From assembly GCA_038257035.1 (NCBI GenBank), contig JBBSJT010000011.1, positions 1 through 32,012 on the forward strand: a stretch of 32,012 nucleotides of DNA, read 5' to 3'. The position numbers and the translations under genes are program-made. This DNA is from Chlamydiia bacterium (GTDB taxonomy: Bacteria > Chlamydiota > Chlamydiia > Chlamydiales > Parachlamydiaceae). This document shows, one piece after another, positions 2,124 through 24,738 of this stretch. Each line of letters begins with the position of its first letter. Within the stretch, counting starts at the first letter, position 1. The notes beneath the pieces were generated by a model. The model was not told the origin of the DNA and did no database searches. It was given only the letters and a program-made list of their open reading frames with translations.

Positions 2124-2236
2124 GATTTTTTTACCAGTGAGACAGTGAGAAAGACATGAGGACAGTGAGGGGTAATGAATTTCAATACGTCTCACTGATC
2201 TCATGTCTTTCTCACTGACTCACTGGTAAAAAAATC
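2124..2236. repeat. Palindromic element, class 1 (CAGTGAG unit), copy 1
   Basis: GATTTTTTTACCAGTGAGACAGTGAGAAAGACATGAG...CTCATGTCTTTCTCACTGACTCACTGGTAAAAAAATC, imperfect inverted repeat just after the ftsY stop; close copy at 24628-24738. Confidence 0.9.
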
Positions 2237-2334
2237 AGAACCATATAAAAATTATAGGTACGATTTTGGTGGATTTGGGTTGATTTGCATTCTGATTTTG
2301 TGGTAAAAATAACGATCAGAAAATGGGAATTAAG

Positions 2335-2883
2335 ATGAAAATAATAAAAACAGCAATCGAAGATTTGATCATCATTGAACCGAAGTTTTTTGGGGATGAT
2401 AGAGGTTTTTTTTATGAAAGTTATAATAAAAAAGAATTAAAAGAAGAAGCCGGCATTGATGTCGATTTTGTTCAGGACAATCACTCTAGATCTTCTAAAG
2501 ATGTTTTGCGCGGTCTTCATTACCAACTGCAAAATCCACAAGGCAAACTTGTGCGCGTTACATCAGGTGAAGTTTATGATGTGGCTGTTGATCTTCGTAA
2601 ATCTTCAAAAACATTTGGAAAATGGGTGGGAATTCTTTTAAGTGAGCAAAATAAACGCTCTTTTTATATCCCGGAAGGTTTCGCCCATGGCTTTTTAGTG
2701 TTATCCAAAAGTGCCGATTTTCTTTATAAAACAACTTCATTTTACGACCCACAATCTGAGCGCTGCCTTGCATGGAATGATCCGGATTTGGCAATCCATT
2801 GGCCCCTTGATGGAAGAGAGCCACTCGTTTCGGCAAAAGATAAAATCGGACAAACATTTAAAATGGCAGACTACTACTCATGA
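2335..2883 (+). CDS. rfbC: dTDP-4-dehydrorhamnose 3,5-epimerase
   Basis: FGDDRGFFYESY, FVQDNHSRS, LRGLHYQ, QGKLVRV, DVAVDLR, PEGFAHGF. Start is 2335 (MKIIKT) or 2323. Confidence 0.96.
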   Translation: MKIIKTAIEDLIIIEPKFFGDDRGFFYESYNKKELKEEAGIDVDFVQDNHSRSSKDVLRGLHYQLQNPQGKLVRVTSGEVYDVAVDLRKSSKTFGKWVGILLSEQNKRSFYIPEGFAHGFLVLSKSADFLYKTTSFYDPQSERCLAWNDPDLAIHWPLDGREPLVSAKDKIGQTFKMADYYS

Positions 2884-3761
2884 AAAAAATACTAGTAACA
2901 GGGGTTCTTGGCCAAGTGGGCTATGAGCTTCAGCGATCCTTACAACCTTTTGGAAATGTCATAGGAATCGATAAGGACGAAATGGATTTAACCAATCCCG
3001 ATTCCATCAGAAAGTTTGTCAGAGATTTGAAACCTGATATCATCGTAAATCCTGCAGCTTATACGGCAGTTGACTTAGCAGAAAAAGAAACCGAATTATG
3101 CATGGCCATCAATAAAGATGCAGCCCGTGTGCTTGCTGAAGAAGCTTTGAAATTGGATGCGTGGCTTATTCATTATTCCACTGACTACATATTTGATGGA
3201 TCATCAACAAAACCCTACCTTGAAGATGATTTACCAAATCCTTTGAATGTTTATGGTGAAACGAAGCTTGCCGGCGAAAAGGCGATTCAAGAAATTGGCG
3301 GTAAACATTTAATTTTGCGTACAAGCTGGGTTTATGGCGCTCGTGGCAAAAACTTTCTTTTGACCATGCTTAAATTGGGAAGCAACAAAGATCAATTAAA
3401 TATTGTTGCCGATCAAATAGGAGCACCGACTTGGAGTCGTATGCTAGCTGAATGCACTGCTCAAATATTGGCAAAGATACCTCATCAGAAAAATGATTGC
3501 TCCGGCGTTTATCATTTAACCTCTGAGGGCGTGACATCATGGCTTGATTTTGCAGATAAAATTTTTTCAATCCAAGCTAAAAGAAATCCTGAATTTAATA
3601 AACCGCAATTGTCAGGTATTTTGACCAAAGATTATAAAACGGATGCTATGCGGCCTTTAAACTCAAAATTATGTAATGATAAGCTTTTCAATACATTTGG
3701 CATTCGTATGCCCGATTGGCAAACATCATTAAAGCTCTGCATGAACGACCTCGACAGTTGA
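2880..3761 (+). CDS. rfbD: dTDP-4-dehydrorhamnose reductase
   Basis: GVLGQVG Rossmann motif, AAYTAVDLAE, STDYIFDG, YGETKLAGE (YxxxK), LRTSWVYG, DQIGAPT. ATGA overlap with rfbC. Confidence 0.96.
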   Translation: MKKILVTGVLGQVGYELQRSLQPFGNVIGIDKDEMDLTNPDSIRKFVRDLKPDIIVNPAAYTAVDLAEKETELCMAINKDAARVLAEEALKLDAWLIHYSTDYIFDGSSTKPYLEDDLPNPLNVYGETKLAGEKAIQEIGGKHLILRTSWVYGARGKNFLLTMLKLGSNKDQLNIVADQIGAPTWSRMLAECTAQILAKIPHQKNDCSGVYHLTSEGVTSWLDFADKIFSIQAKRNPEFNKPQLSGILTKDYKTDAMRPLNSKLCNDKLFNTFGIRMPDWQTSLKLCMNDLDS

Positions 3762-3885
3762 ACACCATTAACATCTCAAAAAACACCTGTTCTAATACCC
3801 CGATACATTGTCGGGGATTCCTTACAAAGGATATTCAAGCGCCGTATAGGTATAATAACGAAAAATTGTTATTTGATAATATTCT

Positions 3886-3924
3886 AAAAAAGTAGGGAAT
3901 GCATTGATTTTTCAAAGCATTCCC
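3886..3924 (-). terminator. Probable intrinsic terminator of the 88-aa minus-strand gene (possibly bidirectional)
   Basis: GGGAATGC-ATTGA-TTTT-TCAAA-GCATTCCC stem-loop (3895-3924), followed on the minus strand by TACTTTTTT, 10 nt past the stop. Confidence 0.6.
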
Positions 3925-3934
3925 AATTTATGAT

Positions 3935-22500: not shown

Positions 22501-22785
22501 ATTTTTTACCACAGAGAAGCAAAGAGATAAGCAATTATTCAACCGCTATGAGGGATTTTTTTACCGCGAAGGACGCGAAGAAGCGCGCCAAGGCGCGGGA
22601 GAAACGCGAAGAAGCGCGCTGAAAGCGCGAAAAGCAAAGAAGAAGAGAAGATCACTTTTTTTCCTTTCTTCTTGACGCGCGAGAGCGCGCTTCTTCGCGT
22701 TTCTTCCCGCAGCGAAGCTGCGCTCCTTCGCGTCCTTCGCGGTAAAAAAATCCCACATAGGGGGTATAATTCTTCGTAGTGAAAA
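22501..22785. repeat. Nested palindromic element, class 1 (CGCGAAG unit), copy 2
   Basis: Core 22546-22760 CTATGAGGGATTTTTTTACCGCGAAGGACGCGAAG...CTTCGCGTCCTTCGCGGTAAAAAAATCCCACATAG. Outer arms TTTTTTACCACAGAG and GGTATAATTCTTCGTAGTGAAAA resemble those at 18441-18734. Confidence 0.92.
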
Positions 22786-22801
22786 GATAACGAAGGCAAA
22801 G

Positions 22802-23128
22802 TTAGATTTTGCGGGGCCGAGGGGCAGGTGAAGAATTGCTCATCCATAAAAGTAGGATAATAGGAATACTAATTCTTGCACTACGTACAATAAGACCACC
22901 TAAAAGAGTACCTACTGTTCCATAAAGAGCAATACAAGGCACCTCTACTTTTAAGATTTTCGCCTTGTTTTTACAATCATCTGAAGCTGCATTAAACATG
23001 AATAAAGCACCAAATAATGCTCCAAATAGTATTCTTTTTTTTAAAAAATCACCGGTTTTAATTTTGACAGAACACTTTCTTGTAAAATTTAAATTATTTA
23101 TATAAAGTGTCCGCTGTATAGGCATCAT
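22802..23128 (-). CDS. Small hypothetical membrane protein
   Basis: 108 aa, AGGA upstream, 2-3 hydrophobic segments (ILFGALFGALFMF; LYGTVGTLLGGLIV; IPIILLLW). Confidence 0.5.
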   Translation of the reverse strand: MMPIQRTLYINNLNFTRKCSVKIKTGDFLKKRILFGALFGALFMFNAASDDCKNKAKILKVEVPCIALYGTVGTLLGGLIVRSARISIPIILLLWMSNSSPAPRPRKI

Positions 23129-23225
23129 AAAAGGGTTCCTTTTCGTAAATTCTTTATTTTAAAAAGATAACATAAGCAGCTTTATATTGGATAAATTTTT
23201 CGGATAAGTATATACTAAGAGGCTT

Positions 23226-24611
23226 ATGAATTTTATCCATGAACCTTATGTCCCAGGCGAAACAATCGCTGCCATAGCCACACCTCCAGGAAATGGCGGT
23301 GTTGCCATTATCCGCATTTCAGGACATGCGGCGCTAGATGTTGCTGCAAAATGTTTTTCAGGTAAAATTCACTCCTACAAAAGTCATACGGCACATTATG
23401 GTCAAATATTAAACATGCAAGGCTTACGCATTGATGATGTTTTACTGCTTGTAATGCTTGGAAAACGCTCATACACCGGTGAAGACACCGTAGAAATACA
23501 TTGCCATGGTGGAAGTTTAATCACAAGACGTGTTTTGGAAGTTGTGTTGAATTGCTCGGCACGTGCAGCACGTCCTGGGGAATTTACTTTTAAAGCCTTC
23601 ATGAATGGAAAGCTTGATTTAGCACAAGCTGAAGCTGTTCAAGAACTCATTTCAGCAAAGAATGAAAAAGCGCTCGATGCCGCAGAAAATCAGTTACAAG
23701 GCTCATTATCTTCTAAAATCGGTAATTTCCAGGAAAAAATCACTTTAATTGCTGCCATACTTGAAGCTTTTGTCGATTTTCCCGACGAAGGATTAGAATT
23801 TGCTACCAATGAAGAAATTTGTGATCAATTGGAAACACTAGCCAAGGATATGGAAAAACTCATTTCAACATTTCATGATGGAAAAATTTTGCAAGAAGGT
23901 ATTTCCATGTGCCTGATCGGCTGTCCGAACGTTGGAAAATCATCACTTATGAATGCCCTTTTAGACAAGGAAAGGGCTATTGTTACCGATATAGCAGGAA
24001 CAACGCGTGACACACTCGAAGATGAAATGCGTCTTAATGGCTTGAATTTTAAGCTTATCGACACTGCAGGCATCAGGGAGACTCATGAAGTTATTGAAAA
24101 AGAAGGCATTAGACGATCGACCCTTGCAATGAATGAAGCAGATCTTATTTTATTTGTCGTAGATGGTAGTCGATTTAGCGATGAAGACCTGAAATTAGCT
24201 GAACAAGTGCCTTCTGAAAATGCCATACTTGTTCTCAATAAATCAGATTTACCAAAAAGTGAAATCGGAAATTTTGAATGGCTACAAAAATTCCCTCATC
24301 AAGTTTCAATTTCTGCCAAGACGAAATCTGGATTGGATCAACTGAAAAAAACAATTGACGAAGTAATCTGGAAAAACGGTCCGCCAACTCATGATGCGCT
24401 CTTACTCACAAACATTCGTCATAAAGAAGCGTTGAGCGAGGCCTTAAAATACTGTCGACTGGTTCATGAAGGATTAAGCAGCAATATTTCACCGGAATTT
24501 CTTTCAATGGACATTCGTGACTGTTTAAAATCACTTGGAAAAATTATTGGGACCGACATTACCGAAGATATATTATCAGCAATCTTTTCCAAATTCTGCA
24601 TCGGTAAATAA
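23226..24611 (+). CDS. mnmE: tRNA modification GTPase MnmE (TrmE)
   Basis: TIAAIATPPG, SYTGED, CHGG, GCPNVGKSS, GTTRD, DTAGIR, NKSD, FSKFCIGK. Confidence 0.98.
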   Translation: MNFIHEPYVPGETIAAIATPPGNGGVAIIRISGHAALDVAAKCFSGKIHSYKSHTAHYGQILNMQGLRIDDVLLLVMLGKRSYTGEDTVEIHCHGGSLITRRVLEVVLNCSARAARPGEFTFKAFMNGKLDLAQAEAVQELISAKNEKALDAAENQLQGSLSSKIGNFQEKITLIAAILEAFVDFPDEGLEFATNEEICDQLETLAKDMEKLISTFHDGKILQEGISMCLIGCPNVGKSSLMNALLDKERAIVTDIAGTTRDTLEDEMRLNGLNFKLIDTAGIRETHEVIEKEGIRRSTLAMNEADLILFVVDGSRFSDEDLKLAEQVPSENAILVLNKSDLPKSEIGNFEWLQKFPHQVSISAKTKSGLDQLKKTIDEVIWKNGPPTHDALLLTNIRHKEALSEALKYCRLVHEGLSSNISPEFLSMDIRDCLKSLGKIIGTDITEDILSAIFSKFCIGK

Positions 24612-24627
24612 CAACTATAGCCTCTAT

Positions 24628-24738
24628 GATTTTTTACCAGTGAGGCAGTGAGAAAGACATGAGATTAGTAAGGGGTTATGTAAGCAGTGCCTCTCACTTA
24701 TCTCATTTCTTTCTCACTGCCTCACTGGTAAAAAAATC
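24628..24738. repeat. Palindromic element, class 1 (CAGTGAG unit), copy 2
   Basis: GATTTTTTACCAGTGAGGCAGTGAGAAAGACATGAG...CTCATTTCTTTCTCACTGCCTCACTGGTAAAAAAATC, between mnmE and nth. Confidence 0.9.

Follow-up and report, generated by a model that had tools for sequence, protein, structure and literature searches.

Dispersed palindromes between bacterial genes are known from several described systems. In the partnership of REP sequences with RAYT enzymes, a genome holds hundreds of intergenic palindromes together with one or a few dedicated enzyme genes that are flanked by inverted copies of the repeat. Miniature elements of the Correia and NEMIS type are likewise intergenic, are 100 to 300 nt long, and target TA, while IS200/IS605 elements undergo a single-strand transposition that depends on hairpins. 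Here we describe six long palindromes in a 32,012-nt stretch of DNA (the window) from a Chlamydiia bacterium of the family Parachlamydiaceae (GenBank assembly GCA_038257035.1). The window is contig C11 of this draft genome, hereafter G000, which comprises 2.37 Mb in 210 contigs at 36% G+C and is 95.8% complete. Arms of the same families, built as periodic arrays of 7-base units behind a T-run, adjoin genes for GxxExxY proteins elsewhere in G000 and in related genomes. We think it probable that the six palindromes are gene-less derivatives of a hairpin-armed cassette encoding this putative nuclease, which would itself drive their mobility.

The cassette shares features with the described systems and departs from each of them. 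REP/REPIN sequences with their RAYT genes (the REPtron; PMC2817692) resemble it in the family-specific pairing of gene and repeat and in the presence of several systems in one genome. Unlike RAYT, an HUH Y1 transposase, the cassette enzyme has a predicted PD-(D/E)XK nuclease fold, and unlike REP sequences, which are hairpins of 20 to 40 nt with a GTAG head, the cassette arms each consist of a T-rich lead and an array of 7-base units. Nor do these arms lie by RAYT genes; those of G000 flank other repeats. The intervening sequences of 23S rRNA (PMC4990558) likewise have a long inverted repeat whose loop holds a small gene of unknown function, but they lie in rRNA, are removed at the RNA level, and encode proteins of PF05635/TIGR02436, whereas the cassette encodes another protein family, is intergenic, and shows no RNA-level signature. 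A four-helix-bundle gene of the 23S intervening sequence family was seen in G000 itself (C166:500-850, minus strand), flanked by inverted periodic AATTCCAA units, on a 3-kb contig that could come from another organism. As in IS200/IS605, mobility of the cassette would depend on folded DNA ends rather than on duplex inverted repeats, and the hairpin boundary shows no excess of the direct repeats that a target duplication would leave; unlike IS200/IS605, its enzyme belongs to another catalytic family, a nuclease alone cannot rejoin DNA, and the cassette mechanism is only a proposal.

PF13366 (PDDEXK_3; TIGR04256, "GxxExxY protein") matches G000 at two places, both at 1e-40 or better to TIGR04256. 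At C7:1145-1489, the gene has a CGCGAAG arm on each side (926 and 1588), the whole forming a 663-nt unit; at C17:14847-15200, a decayed CGCAAAG arm stands before the gene and a full CGCAAAG palindrome after it. Only these two arm families have a resident cognate gene in G000, where gene-less copies outnumber gene copies about a hundredfold. The window holds no partner gene, as the original prediction had said, and its suggestion of a GxxExxY nuclease as a candidate partner was borne out: both G000 genes adjoin matching arms, and genes in relatives lie inside CAGGAT arms (loci L014, L018, and L021) or CAGTGAG arms (locus L016), so that all four families of the window have gene-bearing versions somewhere. 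From 61 related genomes, titled Parachlamydiales, Parachlamydiaceae, and Rhabdochlamydiaceae, 31 gene loci were taken, 29 of them with usable flanks. Bracketing inverted arms beat all 30 shuffles at 22 of these 29, and three of the seven misses show units by eye.

The same arrangement extends to a wider set of 80 loci, which by their record titles come from many bacterial phyla and three groups of archaea. Inverted arms beat all 20 shuffles at 64 of the 80, a unit was repeated at least three times at 56, and unit arrays stood on both sides of the gene at 57. A T-rich lead, TT[A/C]A[C/A], precedes 56 of 127 arrays in these loci compared with 10 of 320 random positions; ahead of the first unit, the bases read T (0.58), T (0.61), A/C, A (0.72), and C/A. 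Since the same T-rich positions precede units in these wider loci, the common end noticed in the window is a genuine lead shared across the superfamily and extended to T5-8 in the AT-rich G000. The further proposal, that one enzyme class serves cores that diversify, held as far as a nuclease partner is concerned but not for a single enzyme serving all of them, since four protein clades match the unit classes.

These four clades were recovered in a tree of 30 nuclease segments and comprise GAT-type units (support of 99), CGCGAAG (91), mostly CACAGAG and CAGTGAG (86), and mostly CGCAAAG and CACAAAG (86). Unit labels, which were assigned by eye from the relatives' loci, change 11 times on the tree; 300 shuffles give 15.3 changes on average and never fewer than 12. 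Such a match of clade to unit shows co-inheritance of gene and arms, not recognition of one by the other. Across the 61 genomes, unit arrays are almost confined to those that hold the gene (38 genomes). With an array defined as three units and a genome classed by a cutoff of at least four arrays, both gene and arrays were found in 36 genomes, the gene only in 2, arrays only in 3, and neither in 20 (Fisher p = 6e-11, a value that is overstated because the genomes are kin and the cutoff was chosen after seeing the table).

The protein is, by its predicted model (pLDDT 95, pTM 0.88, from 29 sequences), a minimal PD-(D/E)XK fold, and the D...ExK and GxxExxY residues (G24, E27, Y30, D67, E77, and K79) do not vary across 29 aligned relatives. 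Closest among solved folds are the nuclease domain of BpuSI (Z score of 8.2, root mean square deviation of 2.5 over 92 residues) and Cas4 SSO0001 (Z score of 7.9), followed by an unnamed 145-aa protein (7.4) and Hjc (6.6). A Foldseek search against the PDB returned nothing at an E value of ≤0.001, and a sequence search of the PDB gave no match. PDDEXK_3 is listed as being of unknown function, with the note "multiple transfers, mixed clades," in a 2012 survey of the superfamily (PMC3424549). Literature searches on GxxExxY, PDDEXK_3, PF13366, and TIGR04256 and on chlamydial MITE (miniature inverted-repeat transposable element) or REP repeats found no description of the gene-plus-arms design, and those on palindromic repeats of Protochlamydia found CRISPR only.

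In the window, a mechanical repeat search confirmed the six palindromes of the original prediction, with arms of 21 to 105 nt that are 86 to 97% complementary. The arm pairs are 2124-2179/2181-2236 (56 nt, 89%), 6032-6117/6123-6208 (86 nt, 97%), 8918-8938/8976-8996 (21 nt, 95%), 18443-18547/18630-18734 (105 nt, 86%), 22543-22586/22720-22763 (44 nt, 93%, with two further inner pairs), and 24630-24675/24690-24735 (46 nt, 91%). The T-run, supposed to open every palindrome, does so in three, but at 6027, 18443, and 22546 it sits 8 to 36 nt inside. The motif GATTTTTTWMC occurs eight times in the window, compared with 0.50 expected, about 16-fold over chance (maximum of 2 in 100 shuffles); seven of the eight sites are at palindrome arms, and the eighth (21715) is within a gene. 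This excess, together with a T-run that precedes the stem on both strands, sets the motif apart from U-tract terminators occurring by chance.

Copies are not limited to the window. Sites of T5-9 followed by A number 11,009 on both strands of the genome, and their top continuations are CCGCGAA (178), CAGGATA (106), CCAGTGA (72), and ACGCAAA (48). A regular-expression census found 506 arm heads in four main families, made up of 162 adjacent plus/minus pairs and 182 unpaired heads. Same-family pairs number 76 for CGCGAAG (typical lengths of ~200 and 280 nt), 25 for CAGTGAG (~107 nt), 24 for CAGGAT (~129 nt), and 19 for CGCAAAG (~100 nt). The periodicity seen in the window arms is real genome-wide, with 7-base units at a spacing of 8 to 10 nt. 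Arms consist of a T-run, an A, and then the units, all four window families beginning with T5-8, A, and then C or AC. Units take the form C-R-C/G-N-R-A-G, three or more to an arm and about one helical turn apart, and their dominant spacing is 9 nt in CGCGAAG and CAGGAT and 8 nt in CGCAAAG and CAGTGAG. CAGGAT and CAGTGAG are the most uniform families (median pairwise identities of 85% and 78%). Many unpaired heads are assembly breaks, as a contig end is close to 50 of the 59 unpaired CAGGAT heads and an arm occurs no more than 350 nt from 84 of the 420 contig ends. Copies of CGCAAAG are nested in loops of CGCGAAG copies. A search for paralogous empty sites in the genome gave a spanning match for 3 of 154 junction queries, two of which are nestings in variable loops, and no exact target. 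Open reading frames (ORFs) other than the nuclease gene that fall between arm pairs, on C60, C47, and C34, look like chance pairings of separate arms; that on C60, a 69-aa HigA-like antitoxin ORF, is enclosed by a CACAGAG arm pair 625 nt apart (4189-4813) that may be such a pairing of solo arms.

Repeats of this kind are gained and lost between ~90%-identical relatives. We compared the window with two syntenic genomes of the same genus, G001 and G002, which are 70 to 75% identical to it, and with a metagenome contig, L041, which is ~90% identical. Presence/absence differences at orthologous intergenic sites were found at both distances, in line with the mobile-element side of the original prediction. 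No palindrome stands at five orthologous sites of G001; in G002, two sites are likewise without one, and the 6027 site holds a different one. Where the window has a 111-nt element at 24628, mnmE and nth abut (TAATG) in G001 and G002, and the element is also absent in L041 and in contigs of runs X2 and X4. At the 22546 site, L041 and contigs of runs X4 and X6 hold only a short outer-arm hairpin (72 to 88 nt versus ~290 nt), and G001 has a 127-nt spacer with no palindrome. At the 18443 site, L041 has a different small palindrome and a CACAAAG-type right arm, and it also carries, at 23216 just upstream of mnmE, a CGCAAAG insertion of ~215 nt that has no counterpart in the window. A contig of run X4, from a ~90%-identical relative, skips 8856-9011 and is therefore without both the solo arm at 8859 and the palindrome at 8905; at the exact joint of 8855 to 9012, four other letters stand between the sides and TTGAAAAAAATC is retained. 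Besides L041, contigs of three runs show like skips, and the C7 cassette is absent at the orthologous G002 site. The ankyrin-repeat gene of the window (9046-10188, minus strand) is present in the X4 relative; in G001 this gene and its flanking repeats (8856-10598) are missing, and thyX-like and trpS/tyrS-type genes are adjacent there.

If the palindromes were instead kept for a benefit to the host, they might serve as RNA stabilizers or processing sites, as terminators or insulators, or as protein-binding DNA arrays. Their placement agrees with such roles: among 156 located copies, 130 lie between two called ORFs (67 in tandem, 44 in convergent, and 19 in divergent spacers), 10 lie in called ORFs, and 16 are at contig edges; their median distance is 54 nt to gene 3' ends versus 116 nt to 5' ends; and convergent spacers are enriched (44 of 130 copies versus 256 of 1,746 spacers). 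A spacing of about one helical turn would also suit a protein array. However, a terminator scan calls none of the six at their ends, and since the T-run lies 5' of the stem and an A-run follows it on both strands, the palindromes are not terminators. Mismatches between arms, read in sense orientation, are of the G:U kind (G:T in DNA) 117 times and of the A:C kind 118 times. Arms are also no better matched to their own partners than to other copies, with own-arm complementarity and between-copy identity at 0.865 and 0.867 in CGCGAAG and at 0.900 each in CGCAAAG (complementarity is slightly above identity in CAGTGAG and CAGGAT); compensatory evolution was thus not seen, and no Rfam family matches the palindromes. 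Because copies decay without compensation or strand bias, the palindromy looks inherited from a master copy and, if active, would act at the DNA level; we read it as inherited and decaying neutrally, free of RNA-structure constraint. Outward promoters were rejected as well: TATAAT-like boxes show only a mild enrichment, 0.38 outward versus 0.19 inward per CGCGAAG arm, with no difference in the other families, and the window has no more promoter-like sites than chance gives (59 versus 64.3). Given also that the elements are absent from orthologous sites at 90% and at 70 to 75% identity, we regard a host benefit as decidedly unlikely. The classic REP picture of dispersed intergenic palindromes raises another candidate, mobilization by the Y1 (RAYT or IS200-type) transposases of G000, in which nine PF01797 matches fall in about seven genes. 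None of these seven has a T-run arm head within 700 nt, and six have other palindrome families, not of the heptamer kind, on both sides, which makes this explanation very improbable; the Y1/REP systems serve as an internal control, present in the genome yet separate from the T-run palindromes. Two of those other families are also represented in the window (10356-10564 and 13741-13954) and look like classic REPIN/RAYT systems. They consist of GGCAGGCC/CCTAGGGC hairpins and of TACCGGTGG...CCACCGGTA, bracket Y1 (RAYT-type) genes on C105 and C29, and are abundant in G002, often at contig ends.

A weightier alternative comes from a second, outer element. Conservation and palindromy extend past the T-run by ~20 nt in CGCGAAG and ~65 nt in CAGGAT; in several families, the T-run is the inner lead of the arm and not its terminus. 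The true termini of a subset of copies are a common inverted repeat, TACTGGTKCTACTT...AAGTAGMACCAGTA, here called the carrier. Carrier ends number 139 genome-wide at up to two mismatches, compared with 31 to 43 in shuffles, but are at chance at up to three (476 versus 500). Of 15 pairs, 12 are flanked by TATA on the left and all 15 by TA on the right, the target itself being a palindrome, and the same ends enclose a CGCAGAG, CGCAAAG, CAGTGAG, CAGGAT, or REP-like core. Common ends with interchangeable cores, the pattern first proposed for the window, are thus true at two nested levels. Examples with terminal TACTGGTKCTACTT repeats and TA/TATA flanks are C63:13653-13849 and C42:15497-15739; a filled/empty comparison is available for one pair only, in L041, where a carrier copy lies directly on a -10-like TATACT box upstream of mnmE. 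Like Correia and NEMIS elements, this subset has terminal inverted repeats beginning TATA, TA-rich flanks, and insertions beside -10-like boxes; unlike them, most T-run palindromes are without such ends, no DDE_3 transposase was found, and the cores are interchangeable arms of nuclease cassettes. The original view that the palindromes resemble neither GTAG-REPs nor MITEs nor CRISPR therefore stood for REP and for CRISPR (the units are 7 nt at 8- to 10-nt spacing with inverted halves, not direct repeats of 25 to 40 nt with spacers) but failed in part for MITEs, as another element, bounded by its own terminal inverted repeats and with TA-rich flanks, encloses 47 of 106 CAGGAT arms. On this evidence, the hairpins could be primary and spread by other machinery, either a transposase acting on the outer repeat or replication and repair, with the GxxExxY gene as a homing-type passenger that would cut gene-less hairpins and be copied into their loops through arm homology, for which arms of 40 to 100 nt could serve. 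The lack of a cognate gene in G000 for the two most uniform families would fit such a history, as would a single terminal repeat carrying four different cores and a C17 gene that adjoins a complete palindrome plus an extra decayed arm. However, the outer repeat lies outward of 47 of 106 CAGGAT arms (10 in the wrong-orientation control), 11 of 49 CGCAAAG arms (control, 3), and 8 of 73 CAGTGAG arms (control, 2) but of only 3 of 183 arms in the largest family, CGCGAAG (control, 2). Around gene-bearing cassettes, only chance three-mismatch matches to the carrier repeat were found, and the 95.8%-complete genome holds no DDE_3 transposase, other transposase families not having been searched. The near absence of arrays from gene-less genomes is unexpected of a repeat that is independent of the gene, and homing alone moves no hairpins to new loci. 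We consider the passenger explanation unlikely, with more in its favor than either of the foregoing.

The derivation of the palindromes from a nuclease cassette suggests the following mechanism. Nuclease protomers would bind the unit array on a hairpin or cruciform and cut near the T-rich lead, and in this way, with the aid of host repair and ligation, the cassette would be excised or copied to new sites, as would its gene-less copies in trans. Several observations weigh against nuclease-driven mobility. Its main weakness is that CAGGAT and CAGTGAG, probably the youngest families because they are the most uniform, are without a cognate gene in an assembly of this completeness. The carrier covers part of this gap for CAGGAT but not for CAGTGAG, and since so many CAGGAT arms ride in another element, the nuclease may have had no part in some of the spread. 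Nuclease and arms are linked by correlation, and a clade-to-unit match, here based on labels assigned by eye, would arise from physical linkage by itself; in addition to the inflated Fisher value, three genomes have arrays and no detected gene, and two have weak gene matches and no arrays. The modeled fold suggests a nuclease and nothing more specific, being generically restriction endonuclease-like, and binding, cleavage, and transposition are all deduced from sequence. At the boundary of T-run and A-run, there is no excess of direct repeats and no definable exact target, and the one exact empty site (8855/9012) keeps the A-run, which simple cut-and-paste does not predict.

A broader reading, which we offer tentatively as possible, is that GxxExxY nucleases and their heptamer-array arms form an undescribed, phylum-spanning class of mobile element. 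In such a class, a minimal PD-(D/E)XK nuclease would replace a transposase, read its own array on folded DNA, cut at the lead, spread both the cassette and hundreds of gene-less hairpins, and co-diversify with its unit into lineages specific to each other. Arms that come and go between close relatives give PF13366, a large and widespread family, a testable role as the partner of a selfish repeat, and a defined DNA partner allows a direct bench test of arm, DNA form, and cut position. The design would also explain a common class of periodic intergenic repeat, seen here at loci whose titles range over many bacterial phyla and archaea. Should mobility indeed be driven by the nuclease, it would constitute a repeat-enzyme partnership parallel to REP/RAYT on a different catalytic fold. 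G000 is a useful case in which four arm families, several RAYT/REP systems, and the carrier element coexist and nest in one another; arms also break assemblies, as seen in the frequent proximity of arms to contig ends of this draft.

Within the window, the palindromes are distributed among genes whose names (ftsY/rfbC, mnmE/nth, and the sdh genes) had been given correctly from the sequence; rpoN, a thyX-like gene, sdhB, and sdhC are also close by. A CAGTGAG-family palindrome of 113 nt (2124..2236) lies between ftsY (1097-2107) and rfbC (2323-2883) and fits the 22-copy family consensus. The CAGGAT/CACGAT-family palindrome at 6027..6214, between rpoN (4403-5875) and an unnamed gene (6219-7139, minus strand), has its T-run-to-A-run core at ~6054-6186 and fits its family consensus; the outer 27 nt on each side are a family linker module present in most CAGGAT copies. 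The CGCAAAG-family palindrome of 119 nt at 8905..9023 lies between the thyX-like gene and the ankyrin-repeat gene and also fits its consensus; its cognate GxxExxY gene is the one on C17. Two composite elements were found. At 18443..18734, between the gene for a RasGEF domain and sdhB, a CGCGAAG-family palindrome (~18479-18702) is nested within outer CACGAAG-type arms (18443-18462 and 18715-18734), and at 22501..22803, in the divergent sdhC/mnmE spacer, a CGCGAAG-family palindrome (22546-22760) lies within outer CACAGAG-type arms (~22501-22530 and ~22770-22790). The second CAGTGAG-family palindrome (24628..24738, 111 nt) separates mnmE (stop at 24611) from nth (start at 24769). It is followed on the plus strand by a right linker and a decayed terminal inverted repeat of the carrier, AAATAGCACCATATA (24739..24769), which ends at the nth start codon; none of the other arm flanks in the window (12 in all) matches the outer repeat. 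Solo arms noted at 8859, 13672, and 22501 are present in the sequence. A left arm of CACAAAG/CACGAAG units (8859..8885, plus strand) stands directly past the thyX-like stop codon, and an arm composed of a T-run followed by AACACAGAG ATCACAGAG (13672..13705, plus strand) stands immediately past the uvrB stop codon.

Other features of the window were seen in passing. The gene beside sdhB is a 689-aa ORF (16253-18322) with a eukaryote-type RasGEF domain (PF00617, E = 7e-9); it lies in the lowest-G+C stretch of the window (29%) and aligns weakly with G001 and G002. The C-terminal part of a 406-aa ORF (30285-31505) matches an ADP-ribosyltransferase exoenzyme domain (PF03496, E = 1e-10) and may be effector-like. 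Finally, a perfect inverted repeat of 22 nt, AAATCGGCTCCGGCGATTTGCT, whose arms are 184 nt apart (31572-31799), is unrelated in sequence to the other families.

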